64,000 nucleotides of DNA from the IMG/VR virus record IMGVR_UViG_3300045988_179398, positions 1 through 64,000 of that record. One strand, 5' to 3'. Source of the stretch: a virus. The first letter of the stretch is position 1. Each line of letters begins with the position of its first letter. The notes under the pieces are model-generated. The model was not told the origin of the DNA. It saw only the letters and a list, made by a program, of their open reading frames with translations, and searched no databases. Of this stretch, positions 1 through 57,281 are shown piece after piece. Both the position numbers and the translations under genes were made by a program.

Positions 1-288
1 AAGCCTTTCTTCTAATATGAACGCGGGACCGAACATTCTTGCGAGCCCGACATACGCGTCTTTATAGACGTTCCAGCCTGCATAACGCCGCTGCTTTTCG
101 TTTGAAACCAACAACGTGTATTGCGACGTTGGAGTGCCTGTTCTCGGGTCGCGATATTCGCCGCCGAATTCGAGGCTTACGGTGCCCGTTATATACGGAA
201 CGACGTTTTCTTCGATGTAACGCTCTATTGCGAGAACGTTGGTTTTGAGCTGTTCTTTTTGCTCAGCTGTAAATGTTAAATTGTCCAT
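1..288 (-). CDS. hypothetical protein, partial (N-terminal 96 codons; C-terminus beyond window start)
   Basis: ATG at 288-286 with AAGGAGG 5 nt upstream (rc of 294-300). My translation MDNLTFTAEQKEQLKTNVLAIERYIEENVV... stays open to position 1. Absent from the ORF track only because no stop lies in the window. Confidence 0.6.
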   Translation of the reverse strand, partial: MDNLTFTAEQKEQLKTNVLAIERYIEENVVPYITGTVSLEFGGEYRDPRTGTPTSQYTLLVSNEKQRRYAGWNVYKDAYVGLARMFGPAFILEERL

Positions 289-304
289 TTTAACCTCCTT
301 GGAC

Positions 305-484
305 TTAATCCTTAATTACGCCGTAAATATCATCGACGTAATAACCCGCGAAAATGTTATAAATCGCGGTGCATTTCTTACCGTTGTATTCAACGATAAT
401 GTCGTTATCCCCGTTGTATTGGAGAATGGTTACTTCGGCAAACTTGCCGTCTAAGCTGTGAATGTGTGCTTGTACTTTGTTCAT
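305..484 (-). CDS. hypothetical small protein (59 aa)
   Basis: ATG 484-482, GGAGG 6 nt upstream (rc 491-495), TAA at 307-305. Translates MNKVQAHIHSLDGKFAEVTILQYNGDNDIIVEYNGKK... Below the track's length cut-off. Confidence 0.6.
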   Translation of the reverse strand: MNKVQAHIHSLDGKFAEVTILQYNGDNDIIVEYNGKKCTAIYNIFAGYYVDDIYGVIKD

Positions 485-541
485 ATCGAACCTCCAGATT
501 TTACTGCGATTATTCAGGCGAACATCGCGAAACGCCGTTTT

Positions 542-688
542 TTACTCCTCGTCCTTTTCAGGCTTCGGGAGCGTTTTGGGGTCGTGGGTTGAACCTGCGT
601 TTTTGACTTTGAGCAGGTCTTTGTCCGCTTCCGTCAACGCGAGTTTCTCGACGCTTTTCTTCGTGTAATCCTTGAAGAAGTTAGCCAT
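542..688 (-). CDS. hypothetical small protein (48 aa)
   Basis: ATG 688-686, AGGAGG 6 nt upstream (rc 695-700). Translates MANFFKDYTKKSVEKLALTEADKDLLKVKNAGSTHDPK... Confidence 0.55.
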   Translation of the reverse strand: MANFFKDYTKKSVEKLALTEADKDLLKVKNAGSTHDPKTLPKPEKDEE

Positions 689-689
689 T

Positions 690-860
690 TCAGTCCTCCT
701 TTTTGAGACGCTCATTTATGAGCTTGTTTCTGATTTTTTCGATTTCGATGCGGTTCTTACATCCCCGCAACGAAGCTCTGATTTCGTCCGTAATTTCTAT
801 ATCGAAGTCACGGAGCAGATGCCGCGTATAACGGCGGTATTCCTTTAACGTGAGTTCCAC
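690..860 (-). CDS. hypothetical small protein (56 aa, GTG start)
   Basis: GTG 860-858 with GGAGG 9 nt upstream. Translates (M)ELTLKEYRRYTRHLLRDFDIEITDEIRASLRGCKNRIEIEKIRNKL... The nearby ATG at 867 gives only 19 aa. Confidence 0.5.
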   Translation of the reverse strand: MELTLKEYRRYTRHLLRDFDIEITDEIRASLRGCKNRIEIEKIRNKLINERLKKED

Positions 861-988
861 TACTCATCACCTCCTTTCGTCCAGAAGAACGATTTCTTTC
901 CTTTGACGGCTCTTTCGTAATCGATAAGAACTGTCGCTCCGACGATTGCCGTCGTTAAACAAACAACTGCGATAATTCCGAGTACCAT
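860..988 (-). CDS. small membrane protein (42 aa, one hydrophobic helix)
   Basis: ATG 988-986 with GGAGG 8 nt upstream. Translates MVLGIIAVVCLTTAIVGATVLIDYERAVKGKKSFFWTKGGDE. Confidence 0.55.
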   Translation of the reverse strand: MVLGIIAVVCLTTAIVGATVLIDYERAVKGKKSFFWTKGGDE

Positions 989-989
989 T

Positions 990-1421
990 TTAATCACCTC
1001 CTTTAAGTGCTTTCTTTAACGATTCAGCTTCGTCAGCTAAACCGTTCCTTTTGAGAACACGATACGCACTTGCGTAATCTCCGAGTTCAACGAAAACGCT
1101 TGCGTCGTCGATCGCGAGTTCTTGCGAGTATGCAACCACGCGTTTTGCCGCGTTCGTGAGAAGACGTTGTGCAACGCCTTTGCGGTCGTACTTGCGCGTT
1201 TTGCGGACTTCGATTACAACCTTCGTCGTTTTGCGGAGCTCTTCCGCTTCGAGAAGCGCCATCTTCGCCGCGTGCAATTGGGCGAGATAACATTTATCTT
1301 CGATGCAAAAACCTGCTTTGGGGCAGATCGAGCAACTGTGCTCGAAACGTGATTTTGCTTCTTCGATAGTCTTTGCCTCGTCTTGAAGTTCGATTGCTTT
1401 GTTCTTGTTAAACCACTTCAT
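990..1421 (-). CDS. hypothetical protein (143 aa), Cys-rich centre
   Basis: Track ORF with AGGAGG upstream (rc around 1429-1435). Contains CSICPKAGFCIEDKC. No family recognised. Confidence 0.8.
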   Translation of the reverse strand: MKWFNKNKAIELQDEAKTIEEAKSRFEHSCSICPKAGFCIEDKCYLAQLHAAKMALLEAEELRKTTKVVIEVRKTRKYDRKGVAQRLLTNAAKRVVAYSQELAIDDASVFVELGDYASAYRVLKRNGLADEAESLKKALKGGD

Positions 1422-1422
1422 A

Positions 1423-1647
1423 TTATTTCACCTCCTTGACGTCCGTCCAGTTGTATTGAGCGTCGCCGCCCGAATTCTTTTTGAAGTTCTTGCAGAAAAG
1501 CATGCAGTAATCATGTGCTTCATTCAAGCATTCTTGCTCAGTTTCGTGTAACGAAGTTGTGAATTCGTTCACGATTTCGTTGCTGCGCTCGTCTCTGAGC
1601 GTTTTGCCATCCACTTCGAGAGTGAATTTGATGTTATAGAATTTCAT
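1423..1647 (-). CDS. hypothetical protein (74 aa)
   Basis: Track ORF with GAAGGAG upstream. First cistron downstream of hammerhead 1. Confidence 0.8.
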   Translation of the reverse strand: MKFYNIKFTLEVDGKTLRDERSNEIVNEFTTSLHETEQECLNEAHDYCMLFCKNFKKNSGGDAQYNWTDVKEVK

Positions 1648-1698
1648 AGTTTACTCCTTCGCCCACCCTTTCGAGGTATATGAACGGGCTTGTTTATT

Positions 1699-1761
1699 GG
1701 GTTTTACCCTGACGCCTTTCGGCGTTTCGTCTCAATCTTCCGAGACTCTTCAGAGGGTTAA
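1699..1761 (-). ncRNA. hammerhead ribozyme, type I topology (copy 1)
   Basis: Minus-strand RNA reads UUAACCCU-CUGAAGAG-UCUC-GGAAGAUU-GAGA-CGAAAC-GCC-GAAA-GGC-GUC/AGGGU-AAAACCC. The full CUGANGA and GAAA core, the A15.1:U16.1 pair and C17 are present. Stems II and III are closed and stem I is open. Confidence 0.85.
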
Positions 1762-1982
1762 TAGTAACTAATTTCGAGTATAAGTAAATCTTCAACGGGC
1801 GAGACGTCGACCGTGTGAAACTCGGCACTCTTGACTTGCTTGCACTTCAAAAGCGCTTTTTTGATTTCTCCGAGCGGAACGTAAATTTGTTCAATACCAC
1901 GAACACGTTCGATTTCGAAGATATCGTTATCGAAGATGCACAATCTACGTTCAGTTACGATGATGTCAGCGAGTGTTTCCAC
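1758..1982 (-). CDS. hypothetical protein (74 aa; start uncertain)
   Basis: Track ORF uses GTG at 1982. The only SD (GGAG, rc 2014-2017) lies 7 nt before an in-frame ATT at 2006-2004, so the true start may be upstream. Confidence 0.65.
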   Translation of the reverse strand: METLADIIVTERRLCIFDNDIFEIERVRGIEQIYVPLGEIKKALLKCKQVKSAEFHTVDVSPVEDLLILEISYY

Positions 1983-2064
1983 TAAAGTGTTATTGAGTAA
2001 TAAAATGGTAGTTCTCCTTTGCTCTAAACCCCTGAACGTCCTATCTACGTTAGCGAAAGGTAAT

Positions 2065-2127
2065 GGGATTTATCCCGACGCCCGAAGGCGTTTCGTCGTA
2101 ATTTTCAACGACTCGTCAGGGGATTAA
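2065..2127 (-). ncRNA. hammerhead ribozyme, type I topology (copy 2)
   Basis: Minus-strand RNA reads UUAAUCCC-CUGACGAG-UCGU-UGAAAAUU-ACGA-CGAAAC-GCC-UUCG-GGC-GUC/GGGAU-AAAUCCC. It has the same architecture as copy 1, with compensatory changes in stems I and II. Confidence 0.85.
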
Positions 2128-2300
2128 AGTTCTTCCTGTTCGCATTCGAGCTGATATTGTTCATCAACTCCGATACTCGAAAGGAATTCAGCAACCATAT
2201 CGGCTGCTTCACGCGCTGTCTCTGCGCAAAAGATGTGAGAGAGTTTTACTTCGTCGTTCGTGTCTAATAGAACGACTTTGAAAGTATAACCTTTCAGCAT
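2124..2300 (-). CDS. hypothetical small protein (58 aa)
   Basis: ATG 2300-2298 with GGAGGTG upstream. Translates MLKGYTFKVVLLDTNDEVKLSHIFCAETAREAADMVAEFLSSIGVDEQYQLECEQEEL. The stop codon lies inside stem I of hammerhead 2. Confidence 0.65.
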   Translation of the reverse strand: MLKGYTFKVVLLDTNDEVKLSHIFCAETAREAADMVAEFLSSIGVDEQYQLECEQEEL

Positions 2301-2312
2301 TTTGTCACCTCC

Positions 2313-2675
2313 TTAAAGGGCGATGCCAAAAAGTTTGGCACCAACCCTTCTTGCTGCTTTGCGAACCTTCTCCGCTTCGGGCGAAGAAAATTTCGCAGCT
2401 GTTTCGAAGGCTTCTCTAAGATACGCCTTCAGGTTGTTACGTCCGAAATCGGTCGTAACTATTTCTTCGCTCTCGATAACGTGAGCGATGTCTCTCGCGC
2501 TTACTGCGAGCATTATAAGCTCATCGTAACGAGCTTCGTTGGACCCCGACACTATAATGTCGTAATCTTCGTAGCCTGCTTGCTTTACATCAGCAACCAG
2601 CTTGCGTGCTTCGTCCGCGAGATATTCCGCGAACTCTTTTGCTTGTTTTAACCAACTGTTCATAACGTTTGTCAT
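2313..2675 (-). CDS. hypothetical protein (120 aa)
   Basis: Track ORF 2313-2711. I prefer ATG 2675-2673 (MTNVMNSW...) because GGAGGG sits 5 nt upstream. Confidence 0.75.
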   Translation of the reverse strand: MTNVMNSWLKQAKEFAEYLADEARKLVADVKQAGYEDYDIIVSGSNEARYDELIMLAVSARDIAHVIESEEIVTTDFGRNNLKAYLREAFETAAKFSSPEAEKVRKAARRVGAKLFGIAL

Positions 2676-2728
2676 AAAACCCTCCATTGGGTGCTCGCTT
2701 AACTCCTGCATTTCAGCAGTGAGTGCTT

Positions 2729-2772
2729 ACACCCACACCTTTTGAAAAGGCGGAATTACATTATTGTAATTC
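2729..2772. promoter_or_regulatory. two palindromes in the leftward promoter/leader region (operator candidates)
   Basis: CCTTTTGAAAAGG at 2729-2741 has 6-bp arms. GAATTACA-TTAT-TGTAATTC at 2753-2772 has perfect 8-bp arms and contains the recurring AATTACAT motif. Confidence 0.45.
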
Positions 2773-2795
2773 ACTTTTATTACTATATATAGTAT

Positions 2796-3110
2796 ATGTT
2801 AACCCATCTCCTCCTCAACCCAAAATTTTCTTCTCCTCACATAAAACCCCTCCATCCCCCATATCCCGCCCTTCGTAAAAAATTTTTTCCCAAACCCGCC
2901 TATAAAACTCCCAAATTCCCCTTTTATCCACCATCTGGCACAACTCCCCTCTCTCGCCTGTCACCATACCCTATCGGTAAGAGTGCCGTTTTGGCACACT
3001 CTCCACCCCACCCATATGCCAGACCCTCAACCCAACCACGCAACCATTCCCACGCCTTCCTCACAAATCAGGAAATTACATTCAGCCTTCCAAAATCCAT
3101 TTCGCCTTTT
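2796..3110. other. about 300-nt C-rich, nearly G-free tract on the plus strand (G-runs on the minus strand)
   Basis: By eye only about 20 G in 300 nt. The minus strand reads GGGCGGGATATGGGGGATGGAGGGG and GGGTGGGGTGG. The Pro-rich ORFs here lack any SD. Confidence 0.6.
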
Positions 3111-3145
3111 CGGCTTTTCCCAAAATTTAAAAAAATCAAAAATCC
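3073..3145 (+). repeat. regulatory-region repeat, copy 1 (AAATTACATTC ... AAAATTTAAAAAAATCAAAAA)
   Basis: Shares order and sequence blocks with 3702-3774. A 21-nt core (3122-3142) is identical to 3751-3771. Confidence 0.7.
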
Positions 3146-3157
3146 ACCAAAAATCAC

Positions 3158-3186
3158 TTGACAAATCTTCCCGCTTATGTTATACT
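3158..3186 (+). promoter_or_regulatory. sigma70/SigA-type promoter
   Basis: TTGACA (3158-3163), 17-nt spacer ending in TGT, TATACT (3181-3186). Lies 22 nt before the ATG at 3209. Confidence 0.75.
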
Positions 3187-3208
3187 ATAACCAAACAAGG
3201 AGGTATTT

Positions 3209-3703
3209 ATGAAATTCGAAGAATGCAAAATTGGCGATATCGTCACACCTAAAACAGATAAAATAAAAACTTATTGCTTTCGCGGTGGAACCTCTTATAT
3301 CGCATTGGCAAAAGAATTTATAATAACCGAACTCAATCGCGCTACAAAGACTGTGGATATAACTTCTACAGATCCAAAAAACGATACAGTATGCCTATTT
3401 GTCTATCCGTCATGTCTTAACCCCGCCAACTCTGACAAATTCTCAATGTCCGAAGCGCTTCATGGCAAAATAATAACGCCCCCGCAAACGCCAGATTACA
3501 AATTAGACTTCGAGGTACGCCGCGAGAAAAACGAGCTTTCGGCTTATTATCACGGTGTCAAACTCGCGACCGTGCGCTGCCACCCAGACGACACTTACGA
3601 CGAGGAGTTCGGGCTTCACCTTTTACTCCGCCGCGCGTGCCTGAAACTCAAAGACGAACACACGGTGGTCGAGACGGTCGAAGAGCTTTTGCAAAAACCG
3701 TAA
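3209..3703 (+). CDS. hypothetical protein (164 aa), moron-like single gene
   Basis: Track ORF with AAGGAGG 6 nt upstream and its own consensus promoter. No family recognised. Confidence 0.85.
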   Translation: MKFEECKIGDIVTPKTDKIKTYCFRGGTSYIALAKEFIITELNRATKTVDITSTDPKNDTVCLFVYPSCLNPANSDKFSMSEALHGKIITPPQTPDYKLDFEVRREKNELSAYYHGVKLATVRCHPDDTYDEEFGLHLLLRRACLKLKDEHTVVETVEELLQKP

Positions 3704-3774
3704 ATTACATTCGGGCGGCTAAAATCGATTTTAACTTTTTAGCGTTTTCGAAAATTTAAAAAAATCAAAAAACC
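3702..3774 (+). repeat. regulatory-region repeat, copy 2
   Basis: AAATTACATTC at 3702-3712 and AAAATTTAAAAAAATCAAAAA at 3751-3771. Similarity to copy 1 ends where the TnpB element begins. Confidence 0.7.
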
Positions 3775-3875
3775 GACTTTGCATGGAAACGGTTGAAAGA
3801 CAACGGTTTGCAATCTTAATCCTTTTAAGGGTTTGGTCAAAGAGTCTATAAAATGAATATGAGGAGGTGATAAGT

Positions 3876-4988
3876 ATGTTAAGAACCTACAAATATAGAT
3901 TATATCCAAATAAACAGCAAGAAATACTGTTACAAAAAACATTTGGATGTTGCAGATTTGTGTATAATCAAACTTTGGATTACAGGAAGAAATTATATGA
4001 AAACGAAAACAAAAGTATGAATAAATTTTCTTGTAATCAATATGTAAATCAAGTTCTTAAAAAGGAGTTTGAATGGTTAAAAGAAGTAGACAAATTCTCT
4101 TTAACTAATTCCGTTTGGAATATGGACGCTGCTTATCAGAACTTCTTTGTATTACATAGCGGTTATCCTAAGTTTAAGAGCAAACGAGATAATCATAAAT
4201 CTTACAAAACAGATTTTACAAATAATAATATAGCGGTTTCGTTTAAAAGAAATAAAGTCAAACTACCAAAACTTAAATGGGTAAAAGCAAAACTACACCG
4301 AGAATTTGTTGGTAAAATTAAATCAGCTAATATTTCACAGGAACCGAGTGGTAAGTATTTTATTTCTATATTAGTAGATGAGATCTATAATGAAACACCT
4401 TCAAGGGTCGATAGTAAAGTTGGAATTGATTTAGGTATAAAAGATTTACTTATCACTTCAAACGGAGATAAATTCGAAAATATTCACACTCTTAAAAAAT
4501 ATGAAAATAAGCTTATAAAACAACAGCAAAGATTATCTCGAAAAGTCAAGGGCTCAAATAACCACAATAAGCAAAAGATTAAAGTTGCAAGATCACACGA
4601 AAAAATTCGTAATATCAGATTAGATTACTTACATAAAATCACTCACAAACTTATTAACGAAAATCAAGTAATAGTTAGTGAGGATTTGAATGTAGGTAAA
4701 ATGATGGAAGAACATAATCTTGCAAAACAAATTCAGGATTGCGGTTGGTACGAATTAACACGACAATTGCAATATAAAGCAGATTGGAATAATAGACAAT
4801 ATATTAAAATTGGCAGATATGTTCCAAGTAGTCAAACTTGCAATTGTTGCGGATATATAAATCCAGAAGTTAAAAATCTATCTGTTAGAAAGTGGATCTG
4901 CCCTGAATGTGGAACAAAACACGATAGAGATATAAACGCTGCTAAAAATATTTTAGCAGAAGGGTTAAAACAATTGACAAAAGCATAA
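3876..4988 (+). CDS. tnpB: TnpB (OrfB) RNA-guided endonuclease of the IS200/IS605 family
   Basis: N-terminal MLRTYKYRLYPNKQQ. RuvC-like VGIDLGIKD and VSEDLNV. C-terminal CNCCG...CPECG zinc finger followed by HDRDINAAKNI. ATG 3876 preferred (GAGGAGG 8 nt upstream) over the track's GTG 3867. Confidence 0.9.
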   Translation: MLRTYKYRLYPNKQQEILLQKTFGCCRFVYNQTLDYRKKLYENENKSMNKFSCNQYVNQVLKKEFEWLKEVDKFSLTNSVWNMDAAYQNFFVLHSGYPKFKSKRDNHKSYKTDFTNNNIAVSFKRNKVKLPKLKWVKAKLHREFVGKIKSANISQEPSGKYFISILVDEIYNETPSRVDSKVGIDLGIKDLLITSNGDKFENIHTLKKYENKLIKQQQRLSRKVKGSNNHNKQKIKVARSHEKIRNIRLDYLHKITHKLINENQVIVSEDLNVGKMMEEHNLAKQIQDCGWYELTRQLQYKADWNNRQYIKIGRYVPSSQTCNCCGYINPEVKNLSVRKWICPECGTKHDRDINAAKNILAEGLKQLTKA

Positions 4989-5107
4989 TAAAGTGCTATA
5001 ATAAAAAATACCGTTGGAACTACGGAAATTTACGCTTGTGGAGACAGAGGTTGCGAAGTCGATGAAGCAAGAAACCCTCACCTTTTTAGGAGCTGTGGGT
5101 GGTTCAC
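4880..5107 (+). ncRNA. candidate omega RNA (reRNA) overlapping the tnpB 3' end and right end
   Basis: Placement follows established TnpB biology. Local hairpins are visible, e.g. CCGT-TGGAACT-ACGG at about 5013-5027. Boundaries are not determined. Confidence 0.4.
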
Positions 5108-5328
5108 AAATACGCAGTTTTAGTGCAGAATCGGTTTTTTAACTGCTCGAAATCGACGGGTTTAAAATGACCCGACAAAGACCCAATGTTTAATACTTTT
5201 GACCCAATACGGGTTTACGTCCAAAATAACAAACATAAACTTAAACACGTCTTTTGTTCTAATCCACGCGAAAAGTCGGTTTCGGCTCGGTTCGCGCAAT
5301 CTTGTTCGTGATTTCAATTTAACATCGA

Positions 5329-5379
5329 TTTTATCAATCTAACATCCGAATGTTAAATGTCTAAAACGAATGTTACTAT
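5329..5379. promoter_or_regulatory. nested TAACAT/ATGTTA inverted repeats overlapping an extended -10 (TGTTACTAT)
   Basis: TAACAT occurs near 5330 and 5340 and ATGTTA near 5349 and 5370. TGT-TACTAT lies at 5371-5379 on the plus strand. Confidence 0.35.
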
Positions 5380-5385
5380 ATCACC

Positions 5386-5520
5386 TTACTGATACAAAAC
5401 CGCCTCGCTCGTTTTTATCCTGTGATTTCAAATTCGGTAATCTCCGTTTCTCCGATTAAAAACGAGCTCTGCGATTTTAAGTAAGCAAAAAGCCCCGCCG
5501 AAACGGAGCTTTGTTTTTTT
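5386..5520 (+). ncRNA. candidate small RNA (about 130 nt)
   Basis: Lies downstream of the extended -10 at 5371-5379. An 11-bp long-range stem pairs GCTCGTTTTTA (5407-5417) with TAAAAACGAGC (5457-5467). It ends at the intrinsic terminator 5491-5520. No SD-led ORF. Confidence 0.3.
5491..5520. terminator. bidirectional intrinsic terminator between convergent units
   Basis: AGCCCCG-CCGAAA-CGGAGCT stem-loop followed by TTGTTTTTTT on the plus strand and preceded by AAAAA, so U-runs flank it on both strands. Confidence 0.6.
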
Positions 5521-5536
5521 GACAAACTGATTTTTT

Positions 5537-5788
5537 TTACCAACTTATTCGCAAGACTGTTTTCGTATCTTCGTCGACGCAATCCACATTATATCCAAGA
5601 TTTCGAAGTCCTTCCTGTATTTCAACAACAACGAACAACATGCAATGTTCAAAATCCCAAACAATGCTTGTTTCGCCGTGCTCTGCTGCTTGCCTGATGT
5701 TTTTGAAGATTTGGTTCTCTAACCATTTCTTGCCAAGCGTTTTGGTAACTTCTCGTGCCTGTTTCACCGTCAATCTTTCTTTTTCCAT
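5537..5788 (-). CDS. hypothetical protein (83 aa)
   Basis: Track ORF with GCAGGAGAAG upstream. Confidence 0.75.
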   Translation of the reverse strand: MEKERLTVKQAREVTKTLGKKWLENQIFKNIRQAAEHGETSIVWDFEHCMLFVVVEIQEGLRNLGYNVDCVDEDTKTVLRISW

Positions 5789-5864
5789 AACTCTTCTCCT
5801 GCTCTAACGGGCTAACGCAATTATGGCTACGCCGCGAACCCGATTTATCTAACCCTTTCGGAGA

Positions 5865-6620
5865 TTAGTCTTCTATTATAATACATCCAACTTTATAGCT
5901 CAACGCCGTTGTCGTATCGAGCCCGATTAACTTACGCTCTTTATCGACGTAAATATCGCCGTCTATCTCTCCCCACTTCCCAGCGAACCTCTCGTTCAAT
6001 TCTTTCGCTCGCCAGTGTCCAAACACGATGGTTTGGTCGGGTTTTACCTTAATCTCATCAAAGGCTCTTATATAATCGGGAGTCTTTGCCCACGAAGCGG
6101 TCGCCCAGTCGTCTCTGTCGAATTCTTCCAGTCCCAAACCGCGAGTAAAATAATCCATCGGTACAAACCCGTGCGTGATAATATAATGCTCCATCTCGAA
6201 ATACCACGGAAGCGATTTGAGCCAGTTGTAAAACCCGACGTTAATCATCACCTTCGCCGCGTCGAATTGCAGGTAATAATCGCGCTTTACTTGATTTGGG
6301 TAACGTCCCAAAAACGAAGCAAACGTGTTGTGCTCGCCATTATATATATCGGTTTCGGTCAGCTGCCTACGCTCGATTGCGTCGATGAGAATGCTCTCGT
6401 GATTTCCCCGAATGCAAATCGGCTTATTTGTGTGATGGGGCGAAGTGAGATATCGCCAAATATCCACACAATCCGAATTGCTCCGCGCCGCCCTGCCGAA
6501 ATAATCCCCGCACCCGACGAGTTGGTGTTGCGGGTTCGCCGCATCATAACCCATTTCGGTAATCGCGGTTATAAGTGCCTCGTAATTCCCGTGCGGGTCT
6601 GCAAAAACAAAATATGTCAT
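5865..6620 (-). CDS. PPP-family metallophosphatase (Ser/Thr phosphatase or ApaH-like, as in lambda phosphatase)
   Basis: Motifs in order: FADPHGN (DxH), CGDYFGR (GDxxxR), RGNHE, ITHGF, VFGHW. Confidence 0.85.
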   Translation of the reverse strand: MTYFVFADPHGNYEALITAITEMGYDAANPQHQLVGCGDYFGRAARSNSDCVDIWRYLTSPHHTNKPICIRGNHESILIDAIERRQLTETDIYNGEHNTFASFLGRYPNQVKRDYYLQFDAAKVMINVGFYNWLKSLPWYFEMEHYIITHGFVPMDYFTRGLGLEEFDRDDWATASWAKTPDYIRAFDEIKVKPDQTIVFGHWRAKELNERFAGKWGEIDGDIYVDKERKLIGLDTTTALSYKVGCIIIED

Positions 6621-21076: not shown

Positions 21077-21943
21077 ATGATAAAACAAGTAAAAAGGGAA
21101 GTTGAAGAAGAAAATATAATAGACAGCGTGTTATCGTCTGAAACGAATGAAACCATAGATCCTACCGAAGGGTTGTCGGAAGAAGATTTAGCAAATAGGC
21201 GAGAAGTTTTGTCGATATTTCATTATGACCCATTTGAAAGAGAATGTTTATCAGATCGTAAAAAAATGTATAGAGATGTTACCATAATGGTCACACCAGA
21301 TCTCTCAACTGATTTACCAAAACAAAGAGGATGTATTGATTTGGTTCGAAGTTATTTGAGAGCCGATAAAATTTCGGTAGCAATTCAAGAGCTCACGAAA
21401 GATGCGGATACGATGATAAATAATGATAAAAAATTAAAAACCTTGCAGGATTTTCAAAAGACAACGAGCGACATAATCCAAAAAAACTTAAAAGATTTTG
21501 GATTTAGTGAGCGTTATTCGTTAGCAAAAAGTAAGGGTGTTGGAACGCTTTCTTATATAATGCGTGAAAGTGAAGAAGTCGACCGCGATGACGAGAAAAT
21601 AAATATTTACGACGTTGAAACAAGCAAAAGTATGCAGTTGGCAAGCGACATAAGCGCCGAATCGTTTTTTAAGCAAATCGCGTTGAATGCGGGCGATTAT
21701 AAGGATATCGTAACGAAACAGAAAAAATTAATCAAAGAATTGACGGATGAAAATAAAAAACTCAAAGAAGAAAATCGGCTTATTTACGAACAAATAACCA
21801 AAGAGGAGCTTTTGAAAGAACTTGCAAAGAAACTCGAAGGGAAAGGTTTAGGGCGTAGAGAAATACAGGATATGGTTCTCGCAGAAATTCATTATGATGA
21901 TAATGAAATAAAAGAAATGAAGAAGCGAGGTAAAAATAAATGA
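21077..21943 (+). CDS. hypothetical protein; possible small terminase subunit (by position only)
   Basis: Immediately upstream of terL, which it overlaps. Coiled-coil C-terminus. No motif recognised. Confidence 0.35.
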   Translation: MIKQVKREVEEENIIDSVLSSETNETIDPTEGLSEEDLANRREVLSIFHYDPFERECLSDRKKMYRDVTIMVTPDLSTDLPKQRGCIDLVRSYLRADKISVAIQELTKDADTMINNDKKLKTLQDFQKTTSDIIQKNLKDFGFSERYSLAKSKGVGTLSYIMRESEEVDRDDEKINIYDVETSKSMQLASDISAESFFKQIALNAGDYKDIVTKQKKLIKELTDENKKLKEENRLIYEQITKEELLKELAKKLEGKGLGRREIQDMVLAEIHYDDNEIKEMKKRGKNK

Positions 21944-23844
21944 TAAGTTTATATAGCCGAAAAACAGAAACCGACCTTACGATACGTAAAAAAGAGTCGA
22001 TGGACAAATATGTCGATTTGATTCAATGGGGAAGAGAAAACCCAACGAAATTTATCGAAGAAATTTTCGGGATACAACTTATCGACTTTCAAAAAAACCT
22101 TATTCTCGGAACGTGGACTTCAAACCGCGCGGTTTGGTGTGCTGCTCGTAACAGCGGTAAATCATTCTTGGTTGCGATATATGCAATGCTTCGAGCGCTT
22201 CTTTTGCCAAATTGCACGATTTATATCGTATCTAACTCGGCTGACCAAGCGCAAGCGACCTTTAACAAAATTTGTAAATTATGCCGTGGTGAAGAGCAGT
22301 CGGTTCAGACAGACCCCTGTATGTTTTATAACGAGTTGGTTAAAAGCAACGCCAACACCGATGGTTTCATAAAGAAACAAGGTAATTATTCGCTCACGCT
22401 TTTTAACGGCAGCACAATTCAAACACTCGCAGCAAACCCTGATACCGCTCGTGGTCGCCGTGCGAATGTAGTTATATTTGATGAGGCGGCATACGTTTCT
22501 GATGTCATGTATCAAGCGTGTTTGCCTTTCATCAACCAAGACCCGAACTTCAAAACAGGGAAAGGTTTCAATTCGAAGGTTCACCCGAAGACTTTCAATA
22601 ACCAGATTATAATGTGTTCTTCGGCAGGAAGCGTTAATACCGAATGTTATAGAGCTTATAGACAATGTATAATAAATTCGATTATTGGTTATCCAGGATA
22701 TTACGCCGCAGATATAAATTGCGAGATGACACTGCATCCTTATATAAACGGTAAACCCGTTCCAGCGATAGCGAATAAGGCTGAAATGGAAATGATAAGA
22801 GATACCGATATTCGAAAATACAACACGGAATTTATGAATTTGTGGACAGATATGGAATCGCCCGATTCGCTTCTTCAACGTTCCGTAATAATTCGTAACG
22901 AAAAAAAATACTTACCCGAAACCGCGAGTACCGACAAAACGAAGAAATACGTTGTTTGTTGGGACCCAGCCGTTCAACACGATAACAGCATTGTTTTGAT
23001 CGGGGAAATATTCAGAGATGAAAAAGTTGGATTAAAAGGCAGGTTAGTAAACTGCTTCAACCTTATTGAACCCGCCAAACCAGGCGGAGGAGAAAGGCAA
23101 CCACTTCGAATGCCAGACCAAATCACTTGGGTTCGTAAGTTTTTGCGCGATTATAACAACGCAGAGAATCACGAATACACAAACGTAACGCTTCGAATGG
23201 ACTCAGGTTCGGGTGCAGGTGGTAAAAGCATACCAGATTACTTAATGGCGTCTTATACAGATGAAAACGGTGTTAGGCATGTCGGTGTTTATGACAGCAA
23301 ATTTAACCCAGATGTTGATGATGTCGGCACGTCGTATCAAAACATGCACAGGGACAAATTCCCCGAAGCGGTAGATTGTTTACAAGCGGTAGACCCGCGT
23401 AAATACAGAACTGAGATGTTCGGCGCGTTGACTTCGATGATTACACAGGATTACATCGAGTTCCCACCATCGCTTCCTTCGCGTGGTGAAATTGAAAACG
23501 AAGATGGTTCGGTATATAAGTTGTCGCTAGAGGAGACCCGCGCGTTACTCGAATTTGACCTCTTGAAAGACGAAGCGGTAAGGATGCAACAAACGAAATT
23601 GACGACGGGCGAAGTGAAATACGCAATGCCAAGCGGCAAAGATCACGACGATAGAGTTTATTGTCTTGCTCTTTTCGCCTCTTATTTGGCAAATATGCGC
23701 CAAGCCGAAAATCGTGCGTCTGAAAATAATAACACAAGTGAATTTGCCGATTATATAATGAGCCGTATTAGAGAAGGCGACGGCAAAAAGACTCAAAACC
23801 CGTTCGCGGGTAAATCAAATCCGTTCGCGGGTAAAAAGTGGTAA
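21940..23844 (+). CDS. terL: terminase large subunit
   Basis: Walker A-like WCAARNSGKSF, Walker B NVVIFDEAAYV, RNase-H-like nuclease segment VVCWDPAVQHDNSIVLIGE. 634 aa. Confidence 0.85.
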   Translation: MISLYSRKTETDLTIRKKESMDKYVDLIQWGRENPTKFIEEIFGIQLIDFQKNLILGTWTSNRAVWCAARNSGKSFLVAIYAMLRALLLPNCTIYIVSNSADQAQATFNKICKLCRGEEQSVQTDPCMFYNELVKSNANTDGFIKKQGNYSLTLFNGSTIQTLAANPDTARGRRANVVIFDEAAYVSDVMYQACLPFINQDPNFKTGKGFNSKVHPKTFNNQIIMCSSAGSVNTECYRAYRQCIINSIIGYPGYYAADINCEMTLHPYINGKPVPAIANKAEMEMIRDTDIRKYNTEFMNLWTDMESPDSLLQRSVIIRNEKKYLPETASTDKTKKYVVCWDPAVQHDNSIVLIGEIFRDEKVGLKGRLVNCFNLIEPAKPGGGERQPLRMPDQITWVRKFLRDYNNAENHEYTNVTLRMDSGSGAGGKSIPDYLMASYTDENGVRHVGVYDSKFNPDVDDVGTSYQNMHRDKFPEAVDCLQAVDPRKYRTEMFGALTSMITQDYIEFPPSLPSRGEIENEDGSVYKLSLEETRALLEFDLLKDEAVRMQQTKLTTGEVKYAMPSGKDHDDRVYCLALFASYLANMRQAENRASENNNTSEFADYIMSRIREGDGKKTQNPFAGKSNPFAGKKW

Positions 23845-50375: not shown

Positions 50376-53300
50376 ATGATAATGAATCGTGCTGAATTAG
50401 ATAAATATTTGGCTAATAATATAGTTTATACTGGCGAATATCTCGAAGCTATGTCTGCGAAAGACTTTGCAACTTTAAACGAAGCCGCGAAAAAGAAGGT
50501 TCAAGAAATGGCTAAGCGCGGAAGAGAAGAGAGTGCGATGAAAGGGTCTTTGGCGGATATGGAAGCAAAGGCTAAAAGTCTTGGATATGATGTTGCGTAC
50601 AATGTAAACAAAAAAACTAATGAAATAGAAGTCATCTTGGTTGAAAAAGGGCAAGATGTAAAGAAAAATTATGAAAAAGTTGCGGCTGAAGCACCGACCT
50701 TCAAACTTTCTATCGGCGAAGGAACTCGTGGCGGAAAGGGAAGAATGGCTGCGCCAAAATCTTACGCACCACACGTTAGCAAAAGCGGCAAAGGGACTGT
50801 TTTACTCACACAGGTGGAAGAAACTATAAATAGTGTTACTGACGCTTTGTCAAAGCTCGACAGCAGAAAAACAAGACCCGACAAAGGATATGTTAAACAT
50901 GAAGTGAAGAAAGCACAGCGGTTGGCAGAACAATCTATCGTTACGACCGAGGGCTATTCGGTTGTTGATGAAGATAAATTCATGGAAGAAATGAAAAGAG
51001 AAACCTCGAATGCAAGAGGACAATTTGTTCGAACTAGTATGAGAGTAGGCGGCTTAATTGGCGAAGTTATTAAAAAAAGCAATTTTACCAAAAATATAAC
51101 AGCTGCTCAGAGATTAACACAGGACGAACTTAAAGCTCTTAATCAAAAGGCGGACGCGGTTGTAACGAAATACCTTGCGATTTATGCACAAGAAGGAGAA
51201 AAAGCAGCCGATAATTATTTTAAAGCCACCAAGGTCTTAAAAGACGATTTTAAATTGAGTGAAGATGATATTAAAGCTCAATTAGAAGCGGTTAAATCTG
51301 GATTTGGTGACTTTTTATATTTGCCGTCTTCCTTTGGTTTGAGCGGTGATAACGCTTTAAATACGAAAAAATTTTCCTATGTAGGCGATAGAGATTTAGC
51401 ATTCCGTCCATCCACGAGAACTGGTAGACATACGTCGCAAACAAGGAATTATCTCGAACGTAGCCAAAGAGCAAAATCAAGAGTCAAAAAAAGAGCCACG
51501 GAACGTTTTATTCCTGATGTTGATAAAGCAGATACTTCTTATTATAAAGAAATGGGGCATCAATTATATAAGCGTGGCTTGGTTTCTGGTGGGACTAAGG
51601 ATGGGATTGAATATACTCCGCAGATGTTGGTCACTAAAGCATATGAAGATGCTGCGGCTGCTTATATTGAAGAGAAGGTAAAAAAACTCAAAGAGAGCAA
51701 AAAATATAATAAAGCTTCCGACGCTCGTAAAGCAAAAATGGAAGAAGAATTGCGAGATAATATTCAAAAATCGCTTCCGACGATAGCTCAACTTGGCATT
51801 ATGGAAGATGCTGGTTTAATGAGTGAATCCGCCGCTCGTGAATTCGAATCGAGCAGAATGGTGACGACGACTATTTCTGAAAATGAATACGACAAATTGC
51901 AAAAAGAAGCCAAAGAAAAATACGAAAAACTTTCTGAAAAAGCTAAGAAGGCTGTAAATTTATCGGATTTTACCGATCGATTTATCGCTAAAAAAGCACT
52001 TAAACGCAGTAAACTTTCTGACGTAGATATTTTTCGTAATGGAGCGGAGGGTGCTTTTTCTATATCTGCAACGGAAACAGTTGGTGGAAATAGAGCTAAA
52101 TTGCTTTCGAGATATACTGGCGCTCGTGAAACAGACGTTGCCGTTCCTGATTTTATTTTCAATAGGATGGCAAAAGAGCTTAAGATTGAAGGCGCCGACA
52201 TAATTAGTGCGGCGAAAAAGTTTAAAGCGGAGGAAATTCCTGGGTATTTTCAAGGATTATTAGGTGCTTCTATATCGCAACGAACAGCAGGCAAAAACCA
52301 AGATGAAATAGAAAAAACACTTAAAGATACGGTTGCCGCTTTAAATTCAATCGGCTTTAAAGCTTCACTTGGTGAGAATGGAGAAATTTTTATAGATAAT
52401 TCTGACGAAGCAGTGTCACAGATTAAGTGGGATAAAGCATTGGGTTATCTTGAAAGTCTCAATATTCTTAAGCAAATCGATGGCGGTTTTGAATTTGTAA
52501 ATCCAGCAACAATTATAGAAGATGTTATTAATCAAGCGGATACATACGATCCGTCGAAAAAGGTTAAAACAAGCCCAAAAGAGTATTCAAGTGTAAAACG
52601 TGATATCGCCGAGGCGATGGCTGCCTCTGGAGATAAGAGCAAATTCAAATCTTTGGCGGCAGATGTCGATAGAATGTATGATCCAACCACTGGAGCGTTC
52701 GGCGCCGAAGCCAAAAAGGCATCGGTTGACATAGATGCCATATTGAATAAAAAAACGGGGTCTATAGTAAAAACTTATCAAACGACCATAAGTGGGAAAG
52801 ACAGAATAAAAGACGTCACTTCTCTTAAGAGAAAAAGTTATAAAGGGAAGATGAAAAATAAAAAGGGTGCTCACTATATAATATCCGTTGGGCGTGGTTC
52901 TGGGTACACCATTGACGCCTCTCAGTTAGAAATGGCAGCAATCAATTATCAAGAGGCTGGCGGTTTGCTTACTCGTGAAGATTATGAAAACACAGTTCTT
53001 GGTACAATTAATAAAGTCAAGTCGGAAATACTCACGAATGATACAACTGCCTCGGTAGATGTCATGATCGATCCTGGCACTGATTTTGGATTTGGTATGT
53101 CGTTCGATGGAGAAAACGCCTCGGAAGGAGCAACTGGAAGATTTTTGGTTTTGCCAAATGTTGAAATAGACACTGTGCAAAAGGATGGCGAAACATTATA
53201 TAGTTTGCCAAGTTACAACAAAGAGATTCATTCTCTCATTGGTTCGATTAAATCGGGGCAAGGGGATAGCGGTAAAATAGCACAAGAGTTAAATAAGAAA

Positions 53301-56300
53301 ATGTTTGATGCCGCACATTCAAGCAAAGGGACGTTGTGGCAAAAGGCGCATACTAAGCGACAGGGCGGATCAACGAGTGGTCACATTACTGGCATATCTC
53401 AAGATGCGATTGATAAAGCGTTAGCTGAAGGCGATATCGAAAAAGCAAAGAGATTGGCTTCCGATATCTGGGTAAGCGAAAAAGCAATGATGGAAATGCT
53501 TTCCAGCAAAACCCCTTATACAAGCGCAGATGGTGTTTATAATGTTTCCGAACATCAAAATTTTTTAACAGAAGCGGTGAAGCACTTATATAAAGACGAA
53601 GCTGGTGGTATACTCGATGGTTTAAGTGGTTCCGATGACGAAAAAAATAAAATATTATCCAGAGCAATTGCTCAAAGAATAGCAGATGATAAATTTACTG
53701 GCGCAAAAGAAGGGTTGGCGGGCATAATGAACCGTTTCCCGTCGATTGCACAATTATCAGCTGTTTTCAGTAGTTACCATGTTTCTTCCCAATTACAAGG
53801 GAAAGATATAATGGTTGGTGCCGCAATTGCAAAATTTGTAAACGGCGACTATGACGGAGATACTTTGCAACTTGTATTGGGGTTGATGAGCAGCGGAAAA
53901 TCGTTTGAAGAAGCCGATGAAATGGTCGAAAGGCAGCGAGAGAAAAACCTTAATCTTTATAAACAGATGTTCTCGAAAGGAAAAGGTGAGCCGCTCGATA
54001 AAACTGTCGCAACTCTAACAGATGCGCAAAAATTATCAGACCCGAAATATATGGGATTGTCTGCGTTGGCGGCTAAATTCAATAAACCTTATACGGGAAT
54101 GTTTTCTAATATTTCCACGCGTATAAGAGAAGGGTTGAAATTTACTGGTTTTGATGTTATCGATGAGCAAGGCAATCCAAGAGAATTATCTTCGGTTAAT
54201 GATTATATCGACGTAATAAGAGGTAAATTAGTTGCTGGCGTTGGGCAAATATTGGAACAAGATAGTATTTCTTCTAAAAAGGTCGAAAAGCGTTTAGATG
54301 AAGCAAGGAAAGCGAAAGGAAGAGATTTAACATCCGAAGAAGAAGAGGCAGAGCAACTTAAAGTTTTGCAAGAGTTTGAAGATTTGTATAATATGATGAG
54401 GGATCCGAAATCCTCATATTCCGATATTATAGGAAGAATGTCCGAAATGGGATTATTCGGTTCAGACGTCACTCAAATTTCAAGCACTTTAAGCTCAAAT
54501 ATTTTAGGATTGTTAAAAGGCGTATCTGGCGAAGATAGAAATATAATTCTTTCGAGACTCGGAATTTCTGAAGACGATTTAACGAAAGGTGCTTTATCAT
54601 CAGATGTTTATAAAAATGCTGGGAATGCTTTGGAAAACCAACTTGTTGATCCAACCACAGGAAAGCGGCTCAAAATATTCGCAGGCGAGTATGGAACTGG
54701 TTTAGCAACCTCGAGATCTTTCACCCCTTATATGAAGCAGGATACCTATGAGCTTCTTAGGTTTTTAAAATCATTGGAAGATGTTAATAGCGTATTAAAA
54801 AAGACTGGCGAAATAATTGATGAAAATGGTAACAAATTCAATCAGTATGGTGAGAGAATTAAAGAAGCGAAATCTTCGTTGGCGGCAGAAGCAGGGCAAG
54901 AATCTGCAAAAGTTGTTATTGCTGCTAAAGAAGGAAAGACGATAGAAAGGAATGTTGATATTTACCAGAAATTATCTGAAAAATTAAAGACGGCTGGTAA
55001 TAATTATAACGAGATTAACCGTTTATCGACTTCTGAGCTAAAAAGCAGATTACTTCCTTACGGCGGAGAACAAACGACTGGAATCGACGAGAAAACTTTA
55101 AATAGCGTTTATCGAAAAATCAAAGCTGGCAAAACGTTTACAAAAGCAGAACTCGCTACGCAATTTGGTGTCGAGGACGAAAAGGCGTTAAACTCATTAT
55201 TCCTTGGTAATTTAAGTACCGTTCGTGGTAATTATATCCATAACTTATCGCAGGGAGATGTTAAAGGCGCAAGGAAAGAAAAACTGAAACTTCAAAAAAT
55301 GTTTGGAGTTTTGGGGTATTCAGATGAGCAAATCGCAAGCACGTTTGATACATATAAGGCTGGCGCCAAAAACGTAAAGGCTATAACTAAACAATACGGC
55401 AGGTCTTTGGGCTCAGAAATTCCTTTTATCGGAATGACGAGTGATGGGCAATACGTTGTCAATGCTCGAGGAGACGAATTTTTCGTTGGCGAGCGTGCAA
55501 ATCCGTTTTATGATAAAGACTTTAAAGATCCAAATCAAAAGAAGATGCAAAGGGTCTTTACCGCTGTTGATTATAAAACACATACAAGTGGGAAACTCGA
55601 AGACTCTGATATTGTTCAAGGTGTAATATACAAAACATTTCTTGAAGATTTACAGACACGTTTAAAGAGTATAAAAGGCGACGTAGATATTGATTCTTTC
55701 CGTGCCGAAGTTAGTAAAGGTATGAAATATACCTCGAAAACAGAAGAAAGAGAAGCTTTGCTTGCTAAAATTACACCAGATCTTATTAAAAACCTGAAAG
55801 AATCAGATGTTGTTCAAACAGAAATTATTGTTGTAAATCCCTCAACTGGTTCTGCTCAAGCATATTCCGTTGGGGCTGATAAAGATAAATTCAAAGTAGC
55901 ACGTGATATAATTCTTAGTGGCGATACTTCTCCTTTAACATCGGAAGAGAAGACTTCGGTAAAAAGCGTAGCGAAGAAAAGGACTGACGCAAGATACTTT
56001 AAACCAGGCGAACAACAAGAAGGGATTGGAAGTATAGAGGATAAACTCAAACAAAGTGGTGGTGTTACCGCTGAGCAAAAGAACGAATCTCAAAAAGAGT
56101 ATAACACTCTCGTTTCAGAAGAGTTTAAACTCAAAAAAGAAATCGCTGCTCTCGATAAAGAACGCTGGAAGTTGACCAATATTGAAGGCAAAAAGAGCAC
56201 CGACTATACAGTTCAAAATCTCGATGCGGAAAAACAATGGCGCCAAGACGAGTTAAAACGTATGCAAGATCGCAAAGCCGAACTTGAGGGTTTGGGTGCG

Positions 56301-56974
56301 GTTGAAAGTAAAGCGACAACGGCTTCGAATGAAGAAAAAATGACCGCGTATTTGACGCGATTAGGCGTCGGCGCAGATGGGAAAATGGCTTTAACACCCG
56401 AAGAACAGGCAGATTACTGGTCTCAATACGAGCGTGCGCTTGACAAACAGGCTCGCGCGGAAGAAGAGATTTTCGGTATTCGAAATAAAGCGCAGACAAG
56501 TTACGGAACAGAGAAAAACTTACTTTATCAAATTGCAGACGAGAAAGAAAAAGCGCTGGTAACGGATAAAGCAAATGTCGCAATGCTCGAAAAGATTGTT
56601 GGCAAACTTGATCCGACCCGTCTTGCGAACATCAAAGAACAGGTTGCACTTAACCAACAGCTTTATAAACTGCAAGCACTCAAACAAACCCGTGGCGCGA
56701 CCTCTATTTGGGACGTTATGGCGAACGATATTCGTCGTGCGACCATGCGTATTGCAGACTTCGGAATTGCTGCGAAGGTTTTAAACAAGATTCCGCAGGA
56801 TATACAGAAGGTAATTCAGTATACGAAAGAGTTAGACGCGGCGATGACGAATATCAGAATCGTTAGCGGAAAATCGATGGAAGAAGCGCAGGAATTTATG
56901 CGCGGATTACAACAAATAGCACAAAAAACAGGTACAACTTTAAGCGAGTTGGCGAGTGCTGCCAACGAGTGGCT
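50376..56974 (+). CDS. giant virion protein, exon 1 (aa 1-2199 plus 2 nt): RNAP beta-prime-like double-psi-barrel motif and start of the tape-measure core
   Basis: NRFPSIAQLSAVFSSYHVSSQLQGKDIMVGAAIAKFVNGDYDGD (nt 53730-53861). The C-terminal ...MTNIRIVSGKSMEEAQEFMRGLQQIAQKTGTTLSELASAANEWL is TP901-type TMP core. The apparent tail DDCLGHYKLL* is intron read-through. Confidence 0.75.
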
Positions 56975-57281
56975 TGACGATTGTCTGGGTCACTATAAAC
57001 TCCTTTAATTGCTGGAACCCCCTTAGAACCATATAGCTACAACATAACGATGAAATATGCGCAAGTGTGATAGTTGAAAATATATGGATTGGGAAATCAG
57101 CAGCCAAGCCTCGAATAGAGGAAGGTTCAACGAATATGTTCCACGAGTGTGGATAATGGGGAGCTCTACATAGAGAAATCTATGCGAAAGATATATTCTG
57201 AACTTCTGGGGAAACTCAGAGAAAATTCTATTATAGAATCTTTTAAATGATAAACTAAATTTAAAAGTAACACAATTACAG
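56975..57281 (+). ncRNA. group I self-splicing intron (IA-like, ORF-less, 307 nt)
   Basis: P1: exon AGUGGCU (56968-56974) pairs with GGUCACU (56988-56994), with a terminal U.G. P AAUUGCUGGAA (57007-17), Q AAUCAGCAGCC (57095-105), R GUUCAACGAAUAUG (57125-38), S AAGAUAUAUUC (57188-98). Ends in G57281. Splicing restores the frame. Confidence 0.85.

Follow-up and report, generated by a model that had tools for sequence, protein, structure and literature searches.

Background

A 64,000-nucleotide (nt) stretch of viral DNA carries, near one end, two short sequences resembling hammerhead ribozymes, and the locus raises the question whether the second of them encodes a genuine self-cleaving RNA and what its cleavage would accomplish in the expression of the neighbouring genes. 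The stretch comprises positions 1 to 64,000 of the IMG/VR record IMGVR_UViG_3300045988_179398 and is referred to hereafter as the window; the two elements, both on its minus strand, are referred to as HH1 and HH2, the latter being the subject of the present analysis. An initial annotation, made from the letters and the open reading frames (ORFs) of the window, had described HH2 as a second hammerhead copy with compensatory base changes. Of the two RNAs produced by hammerhead cleavage, the upstream one ends in a 2',3'-cyclic phosphate and the downstream one begins with a 5'-OH. In prophages, several hammerheads often bracket one gene or a short run of variable genes, and it has been proposed that they cut long phage transcripts into mRNAs of single genes (Perreault et al. 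2011, PLoS Comput Biol, PMC3088659), a proposal also reviewed in PMC6765202; that review of 2019 still called the role of bacterial and phage self-cleaving ribozymes unresolved. DNA phages are among the known homes of type I hammerheads (preprint 10.1101/2024.05.16.594327).

Judged by its sequence, HH2 is a genuine, well-conserved type I hammerhead in which the defining features of the class at the level of sequence are all present. Probably it is an active ribozyme in an operon of small phage genes, where it would cut the polycistronic mRNA in the course of transcription.

Architecture of HH2 and comparison with HH1

The minus strand from 2127 to 2065 reads UUAAUCCC CUGACGAG UCGU UGAAAAUU ACGA CGAAAC GCC UUCG GGC GUC GGGAU AAAUCCC, identical letter for letter to the string given in the initial annotation. 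Within it, reading of the sequence, a descriptor scan, a family model and the predicted fold delimit HH2 as a complete type I hammerhead of 53 nt (2072..2124, minus strand). Stem I is formed by five base pairs (bp) between AUCCC (2124-2120) and GGGAU (2076-2072), and is followed by the core segment CUGACGA (2119-2113), which corresponds to C3 to A9 in the hammerhead numbering. The 5-bp stem II pairs G-UCGU (2112-2108) with ACGA-C (2099-2095) around loop II, UGAAAAUU (2107-2100); after the core segment GAA (2094-2092; G12 to A14), the 5-bp stem III pairs A-CGCC (2091-2087) with GGCG-U (2082-2078) around loop III, UUCG (2086-2083). C17 is at 2077, and self-cleavage is predicted 3' of it, between 2077 and 2076 (2076..2077), which by the hammerhead numbering is the position already annotated. 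The parse on the standard numbering leaves zero exceptions: the core reads C3 U4 G5 A6 N7 G8 A9, G12 A13 A14 and an H17 that is not G, three helices surround it with the closing pairs G10.1-C11.1 and A15.1-U16.1, the ends of the RNA lie in stem I while loops close stems II and III, as in the type I topology, and the cleavage triplet is GUC. The stop codon of the upstream ORF adjoins the element, as had been described, its UAA occupying 2126-2124 and its last A being the first base of stem I.

HH1 (1706..1758, minus strand), found by the same descriptor scan, Rfam, the family model and folding, has the same architecture; its 53-mer folds into the hammerhead junction and its predicted cleavage site, 1711/1710, lies 366 nt downstream of that of HH2. 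Between HH1 and HH2 two compensatory pairs differ in stem I and two in stem II, with pairing kept throughout, and the GAAA of loop III in HH1 is replaced by UUCG in HH2, all as noticed in the initial annotation. The accompanying statement that the core is unchanged holds in substance, not to the letter, N7 being C in HH2 and A in HH1; N7 is the sole core position that is unconstrained. Counting the flanks, 52 of 86 positions are the same in the two copies.

A lenient type I descriptor (minimum stem lengths of 4, 3 and 3 bp) applied to both strands of the window, that is to 128 kb, matched HH1 and HH2 only, and in dinucleotide-preserving shuffles of the window one match was obtained in 2 of 200. 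A family covariance model, which was built from 18 members of the subfamily and had both window copies in its training set, gave 78.6 bits for HH2 and 76.6 bits for HH1, the rest of the window scoring at most 9.9 bits. The minimum-energy fold of HH2 in a 76-nt context is the three-stem hammerhead junction (z = -1.4). Since this folding energy is unremarkable, the case for HH2 rests on comparative data.

Conservation and covariation in the family

The HH2 subtype has more than 150 instances in viral contigs and Bacillota genomes. A pattern that prescribed the core together with portions of stems II and III and left stem I free matched at least 118 viral contigs and 36 bacterial genomes or metagenome-assembled genomes, the bacterial matches falling mostly in the Bacillota (Lachnospiraceae, Clostridia, Oscillospiraceae and Paenibacillus). 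Stem I had at least four contiguous pairs in 124 of the 130 unique matches, built from 65 different stem I sequences, against 9.5 +/- 2.7 when the stem I partners were permuted. The first pair of stem II, which the pattern did not demand, was present in 130 of 130 and in five pair types.

A model search of 98 loci yielded 140 hammerheads with 136 distinct sequences. Standard pairs fill 98.3% of the pair cells in the family alignment, compared with 71% after shuffling and 28-46% when one partner was slid, and changes on both sides were found in 13 of the 15 pairs, the remaining two, G10.1-C11.1 and A15.1-U16.1, being invariant. The core positions C3, U4, G5, A6, G8, A9, G12, A13 and A14 are invariant in the 136 distinct sequences, about two-thirds of which were retrieved by the pattern that requires the core and the remaining third by the model or the descriptor only. 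All four bases occur at N7; at H17 only C and A are seen, and never G. Many contigs carry arrays of hammerheads, as many as 11 being counted by the descriptor scan in the locus L092. The view that selection acts on the fold and not on the sequence, originally drawn from the two window copies, is thus upheld by larger and independent data, namely the invariant core and the covariation in three stems.

The loop II sequence of HH2 is also the consensus of the subfamily, UGAAAAUU (U-G-A-A-A-A-U-U), and is conserved. The flanks of stem I, itself 5-6 bp long, are A-rich in the subfamily (A at -1 in 91%, at -2 in 77% and at +1 in 73%). The conserved loop II and the A-rich flanks would fit a non-canonical tertiary contact without proving one.

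The orthologous site in sister phages

HH2 lies in a spacer of 117 nt between ORFs of 58 and 82 amino acids (aa). Immediately downstream of it, comparison with sister phages delimits a conserved module of the 5' untranslated region (5'UTR), here called UTR-A (...ACCUUUCGCUAACGUAGAUAGGACGUUCAGGGGUUUAGAGCAAAGGAGAACUACC; 2007..2064, minus strand), with the Shine-Dalgarno sequence AAAGGAG at 2020-2014 (minus strand). In the sister phages UTR-A follows varied upstream elements and precedes varied downstream ORFs. For an unbiased sampling of this site, 19 fixed bases of UTR-A were used as the anchor in a metagenome collection and in the loci already collected. Sixteen distinct contexts were obtained, of which eight carry an HH2-type hammerhead, seven an H-type pseudoknot and one another, unclassified element (L190); a decayed hammerhead occurs in none of the 16. 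The initial annotation had pointed to related phages with disrupted core nucleotides as evidence that would count against the ribozyme; the core is intact in all eight distinct hammerhead-bearing contexts. Variation among these eight orthologues is confined to N7 (C, U or A), loop III (UUCG, UUUU or CUCG) and a compensatory exchange in stem II, from UCGU/ACGA to UCUC/GAGA, and the GGGAUAAAUCCC hairpin is retained in each of them. Four or more different genes lie upstream of the HH2 and UTR-A module and four or more different ORFs downstream of it, and since these flanking genes vary from context to context, the module is conserved in its own right.

The pseudoknot found in the place of HH2 is 37 nt long. 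Its first helix, P1, is (C)GCAG/CUGC(G), and its loop CAUCCGC pairs with GCGGAUG after an A-rich linker. Altogether 12 pairs are formed, with 99% of the cells paired, and four pairs show double changes, contributed by two divergent sequences (L179 and L120). Copies are located at 261-330 in L132, 3326-3400 in L120, 2705-2750 in L131 and 1440-1385 (minus strand) in L078, with others in L138, L140 and L184 and the divergent one at about 2040-2090 in L179. The pseudoknot has no match in Rfam, and the motif is confined to this phage lineage; five other matches of the pseudoknot pattern in viral contigs were discarded as chance occurrences, being outside the lineage and without the P1 arm. The pseudoknot could be a new small self-cleaving class or a non-catalytic functional analogue, for example a block to a 5'-3' exonuclease.

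Two further elements were observed in the same lineage. A conserved module of the form GGACUGGUAGAUGCAGUCC-RCCGAAAGGU-CAAGAGCC occurs at about 770-900 in L190, 2690-2745 in L130, 955-1000 in L135 and about 1385-1430 in L126. It precedes a twister-sister ribozyme in L130 and a permuted hammerhead-like element, described below, in L135 and L126, while in L190 it is followed by the unclassified structured element of about 75 nt and then by UTR-A. The other is a repeated 5'UTR element in which a 7-bp hairpin, its loop terminating in GUGAGU, is succeeded by AGC(R)CCGCUAACG directly before the Shine-Dalgarno sequence; it was found at 2160-2115 and 1375-1335 (both minus strand) in L078 and at about 2760-2800 in L131. 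Its L078 copies covary (GUUGCUC/GAGCAAC and UCUGUUC/GAGCAGA); the window shares with it only CGCUAACG, at 2055-2048.

Other ribozyme classes at the same joints

Matches to pistol, twister-P5 and twister-sister, all above the Rfam thresholds, were found in sister phages in spacers of this small-gene operon, in part at joints orthologous to those where other relatives have hammerheads. In L078 the 58-aa gene has twister-P5 (58.2 bits) upstream of it, in L130 the homologue of this gene is followed by pistol (63.6 bits), and twister-sister (55-66 bits) is present in L123, L126, L130, L132, L180, L181, L183, L184 and L188. Sites of these three classes are L078 1840-1890 (minus strand), L130 2183-2249, L126 1841-1918 and 355-405, L132 573-650 and L123 3621-3696. 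One 5'UTR, GCCGACACAAUCAGGUCGUUCGAAGCGG...GGCAAAGGAGUUAUCCUAUG, is directly preceded by twister-sister in L126 and L132 and by a type I hammerhead in L078, L127, L130 and L135.

In L126 and L135, the element before the 5'UTR that follows HH1 in the window can be parsed as GAAAC, stem III, GUC, a 7-bp stem I hairpin and CUGAAGAG, and by our own parsing it reads as a permuted, type II-like hammerhead (L135 at about 985-1085; L126 at about 1400-1490). Its letters are CGAAAC-GCC GUGA GGC-GUC, and its loop I, GAGCG, could pair with CGCUC just past the core; the Rfam hammerhead models did not recognise it in a slice of 231 nt.

The exchange of unrelated self-cleaving folds at one joint would be expected if cleavage itself is the selected function, and it is the strongest indirect argument for such selection.

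Stop codons, product hairpin and competing fold

Hammerheads of this family are tightly packed between co-directional genes. Of 167 hammerheads, 137 have an ORF of at least 50 codons whose end falls within -60..+12 nt of stem I. In about two-thirds of the 167 no more than 7 nt separate the upstream stop from the start of stem I, and the next Shine-Dalgarno sequence and start codon follow at a median distance of 31 nt. In 35 of the 167 (all among loci L001-L135) the upstream ORF of at least 50 codons stops on the UGA of the CUGA box itself, so that translation crosses stem I into the catalytic core. Among the orthologues of HH2 the first base of the stop codon is 2, 3 or 8 nt before stem I, and on account of this variable register the stop overlap was rejected as a fixed coupling device. 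The proximity of the stop codon is read here as tight packing or genome compaction together with the preference for A-rich flanks, which UAA satisfies.

When the first 32 nt of the predicted 3' product are folded, the minimum-energy structure contains a hairpin, GGGA-UAAA-UCCC (2065..2076, minus strand; -5.2 kcal/mol), that starts at the first base of the product, is made of the 3' strand of stem I and the next 7 nt, and is mutually exclusive with stem I. All hammerheads of the lineage form such a product hairpin from different sequences (GGGA/UCCC, GGGU/ACCC and GGAUAUCG/CGGUAUUC). With this hairpin formed, cleavage would become irreversible and the 5' end could be protected.

Folding of a 141-nt context gives a different minimum-energy structure, in which a 15-bp helix joins 2129-2114, including C3 to G8 of the core, to 2038-2022 (z = -2.7), the partner in UTR-A being the UCAGGGGUUUAGAG segment. 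The UTR segment UCAGGGG is equally conserved where a pseudoknot stands in place of the hammerhead, which indicates that pairing with the ribozyme is not what conserves it.

Proposed function and alternative explanations

We propose that transcription of the operon starts at a promoter near 2790-2820. A promoter-like sequence, TTGAGG-16-TATACT (2791..2818, minus strand), was found there by a consensus scan in a stretch conserved with L078, and likely starts a polycistronic transcript that would hold both hammerheads; no intrinsic terminator with a proper T-tract was found between this site and the hammerheads. The 53-nt HH2 would fold once its 3' strand (2076-2072) emerges and would cut after C2077. 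The upstream RNA, with the 132-aa and 58-aa cistrons, would then end in a 2',3'-cyclic phosphate with the hairpins of stems II and III as a 3' cap, while the downstream RNA would begin with the 5'-OH of G2076, its first 12 nt refolding into the product hairpin and thereby removing the partner of stem I. The HH1 cut, 366 nt further on, would free the 82-aa cistron as a single-gene RNA of 366 nt, and the net outcome would be that stability and translation of the adjacent cistrons are uncoupled. What the sequences show is the motif, how it is conserved and covaries, where it lies between genes and how other self-cleaving classes replace it at orthologous sites; from this we infer cleavage in vivo, co-transcription and effects on stability and translation.

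Several observations weigh against this reading. Rfam at its curated thresholds has zero matches in the whole window; in E-value mode only, the Hammerhead_1 model gives HH2 22.8 bits (E = 0.0034 on 400 nt) and HH1 20.4 bits, both below the gathering score of 34. The score is low because the loops are longer and stem I has 5 bp against 6 in the model, and it reflects the seed alignment of the model, not biology. Stem I is only 5 bp long, inspection by eye of the two copies found no Watson-Crick pseudoknot joining loop II to a flank of stem I on either side, and the tertiary contact on which fast cleavage at low Mg2+ depends is implied only by the conserved loop II and the A-rich flanks. A slow ribozyme may, according to the predicted fold, be trapped in an inactive state by the helix 2129-2114/2038-2022. 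The product hairpin is a modest trend: in minimum-energy folds it occurs in 57% of the family against 39.5 +/- 3.4% in permuted controls, and in an independent bacterial set in 62.5% against 48.7 +/- 7.3%, where it is significant on folding energy only; a cruder helix count (46% against 30%) was dropped, as the mirror-image 5' measure, which had no control, gave 47%. In L078, finally, the gene after the 58-aa ORF begins 14 nt past the stop codon with no element in between, so the ribozyme is dispensable at that exact junction.

The low Rfam score and the short stem I are what would favour regarding HH2 as a chance or decayed look-alike without activity. Against this stand the scarcity of matches in shuffled sequence even with a lenient descriptor, the presence of two copies on the same strand 366 nt apart, both in spacers, the covariation across more than 150 relatives and the restriction of changes in the orthologues to neutral or compensatory ones. 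These comparative data effectively refute the look-alike, to which we assign a negligible likelihood. The two copies have also been considered as excising the segment 2076-1711 (366 nt) for circularisation by a host RNA ligase such as RtcB, as in retrozymes and viroid-like RNAs. Tandem type I hammerheads at this distance, ends with a 5'-OH and a 2',3'-cyclic phosphate that by established chemistry are a substrate of RtcB, a segment length that is a multiple of 3 and a chimeric stem I (ACCCU/GGGAU) that would keep 4 of 5 pairs are all in keeping with it. Yet the segment is an ordinary cistron with Shine-Dalgarno sequence, start and stop and has no stop-free frame, on which grounds circular RNA was dropped as the main reading. 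In relatives, moreover, the spacing between ribozymes and the gene content vary freely and single ribozymes are common, there is no hint of a rod-like fold, and the circular-RNA systems known so far rely mostly on type III hammerheads (bioRxiv 10.1101/2024.05.16.594327). Circularisation is therefore considered very unlikely.

The remaining alternatives grant HH2 a function of another kind. HH2 with its UTR might be a promiscuous intergenic module that marks or promotes recombination joints at which phages exchange gene cassettes, the near-identical ribozymes serving as microhomology and RNA cleavage being minor. One HH2 and UTR-A module does occur with at least four upstream genes and at least four downstream ORFs, L121 and L127 have the order 58-aa gene, hammerhead, 74-aa gene without the middle gene, so that the window resembles an insertion of UTR-A, ORF and hammerhead, the ribozyme of L121 is a chimera of copy 1 stem I and copy 2 stem II, and the copies in the window share 52 of 86 positions including their flanks. 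Microhomology, however, requires no catalytic core, whereas the core is invariant and the stems covary; unrelated ribozyme classes without sequence similarity occupy the same joints, and cleavage is what they share. The shuffling of cassettes may also be a result of conserved modules and not their function, and a recombination role appears unlikely. It is likewise improbable that HH2 is conditional, gated by ribosomes terminating on the UAA or by a helix with the UTR in such a way that the cut fraction of the transcripts, and with it downstream expression, would depend on upstream translation. The overlap of the stop codon with stem I, the closeness of the stop in about two-thirds of the family, the 35 ORFs that end on the UGA of the CUGA box and the preference for the 15-bp alternative helix in the 141-nt fold speak for such gating, but the varying stop register is better explained by compaction and A-rich flanks, and UCAGGGG is just as conserved in the pseudoknot-bearing phages.

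Co-transcriptional cutting of the polycistronic mRNA by an active HH2 is thus preferred. A wider and decidedly tentative proposal, which on present sequences we regard as possible but rather doubtful, is that the operon joints would be slots requiring some element that defines a 5' end, filled by interchangeable solutions before a shared 5'UTR (type I hammerhead, pistol, twister-sister, the permuted hammerhead-like element and, in the slot of HH2, the pseudoknot), with the product hairpin as part of the same logic; if so, the hairpin would give the downstream cistron a structured 5'-OH end.

The phage and the neighbouring genes

The window belongs to a tailed phage and encodes a terminase (21940-23841) together with portal and tape measure proteins. 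The phage is uncultivated, about 135 kb in size, and its host is probably a gut member of the Bacillota. Megablast of window positions 1-6000 against deposited phages (50,697 genomes) gave no match, and for the terminase the highest identity, about 26%, is with Bacillus and Clostridioides phages. An IMG/VR contig of 138.5 kb (L078/L119) represents a syntenic sister genome.

The hammerheads are situated in a minus-strand block of small ORFs, and the proteins of the flanking small ORFs have no confident match in Pfam or PHROG. The upstream 58-aa ORF (2124..2300, minus strand), whose UAA overlaps stem I by one base, matches no Pfam or PHROG family and has 21 homologues in metagenomes; in a peptide-pattern search of viral contigs its protein was found in the L078 contig only, and a similar search with the 74-aa protein found no relative. 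The downstream ORF of 82 aa, which lies between both hammerheads, was assigned to 1758..2006 (minus strand) from the reading frame and its relatives. From sequence comparison it probably starts with an ATT (2006-2004), which is 7 nt past AAAGGAG and at the exact place of the ATG in relatives with UTR-A; its homologue in L078 has the same ATT start and N-terminus (I-L-L-L) behind a different UTR.

Two other elements of the window were observed. Some 1.1 kb upstream of the hammerhead operon, the opposite strand has an inserted gene (3867-4988, plus strand) for a TnpB or IS605 OrfB-type protein, with the Pfam matches OrfB_IS605, Cas12f1-like TNB and HTH_OrfB_IS605. A group I intron-like element at 56932-57221 (plus strand), which scores 47.2 bits (E = 7e-9) with the Rfam model Intron_gpI, whose threshold is 50, sits between an ORF of 2210 aa (50376-57008) and the tape measure ORF (57352-61467). 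A clean in-frame join of the two large ORFs at the borders of the Intron_gpI model was not obtained, the downstream frame being open from 57271 only.

Comparison with known systems

Taken alone, HH2 and HH1 are one more pair of phage hammerheads beside thousands known, of a kind that can be spotted by reading raw sequence; HH2 is an ordinary example of the phage hammerheads known since 2011 and would not surprise a specialist. Of more interest than HH2 itself are two by-products of the analysis, namely the swapping of classes before conserved UTRs and the pseudoknot in the place of HH2. They amount to a natural experiment in related gut phages, where the same 5'UTRs are preceded by a hammerhead, by other ribozymes, by an unclassified pseudoknot or by nothing, and the lineage offers matched constructs for testing how cleavage affects neighbouring cistrons in stability and translation. 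The lineage also holds at least one RNA element, so far uncharacterised, that may do the job of the hammerhead.

As in the arrays described by Perreault et al. 2011, HH2 and HH1 bracket one ORF, of 82 aa, their relatives carry arrays, and ribozymes on the same strand bracket mostly hypothetical, variable genes. The present elements differ in belonging to another phage lineage and in that the pseudoknot-type contact of many of the 2011 hammerheads is not visible in them by eye. Work of 2015, as far as it is summarised in PMC6765202 and PMC8782182, is comparable in that relatives of this operon have twister-P5, twister-sister and pistol within 1-2 kb of hammerheads and among small hypothetical phage genes; relative to those summaries, the difference is that here the classes stand at orthologous joints before the same 5'UTRs, which is one-for-one replacement and not proximity.

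With the type I hammerheads of Rfam RF00163 (clan CL00010), HH2 shares the open stem I, the closed stems II and III, the motif CUGANGA...GAAA...UH, the closing pairs and the GUC triplet, while its subfamily has a loop II consensus of its own, UGAAAAUU. Type I hammerheads borne on eukaryotic repeats have a short stem III, unlike HH2, whose stem III forms a stable hairpin of 5 bp closed by a tetraloop. In the system of the glmS ribozyme and RNase J1, self-cleavage of an mRNA reportedly leaves a 5'-OH on the coding part and thereby decides its fate in Bacillota (Collins et al. 2007). In comparison with glmS, which is ligand-dependent and has a 5'-OH product that is reported to be degraded, no ligand pocket is evident in HH2 and its product hairpin could shield the end. 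The type I hammerheads in the RNA genomes of eukaryotic viruses come close to HH2 in their long stem III and in their location in short spacers just upstream of ORFs; they mostly have no loop-loop contacts and are proposed to yield translatable sub-genomic RNAs, whereas HH2 is encoded in DNA and belongs to a virus of bacteria.

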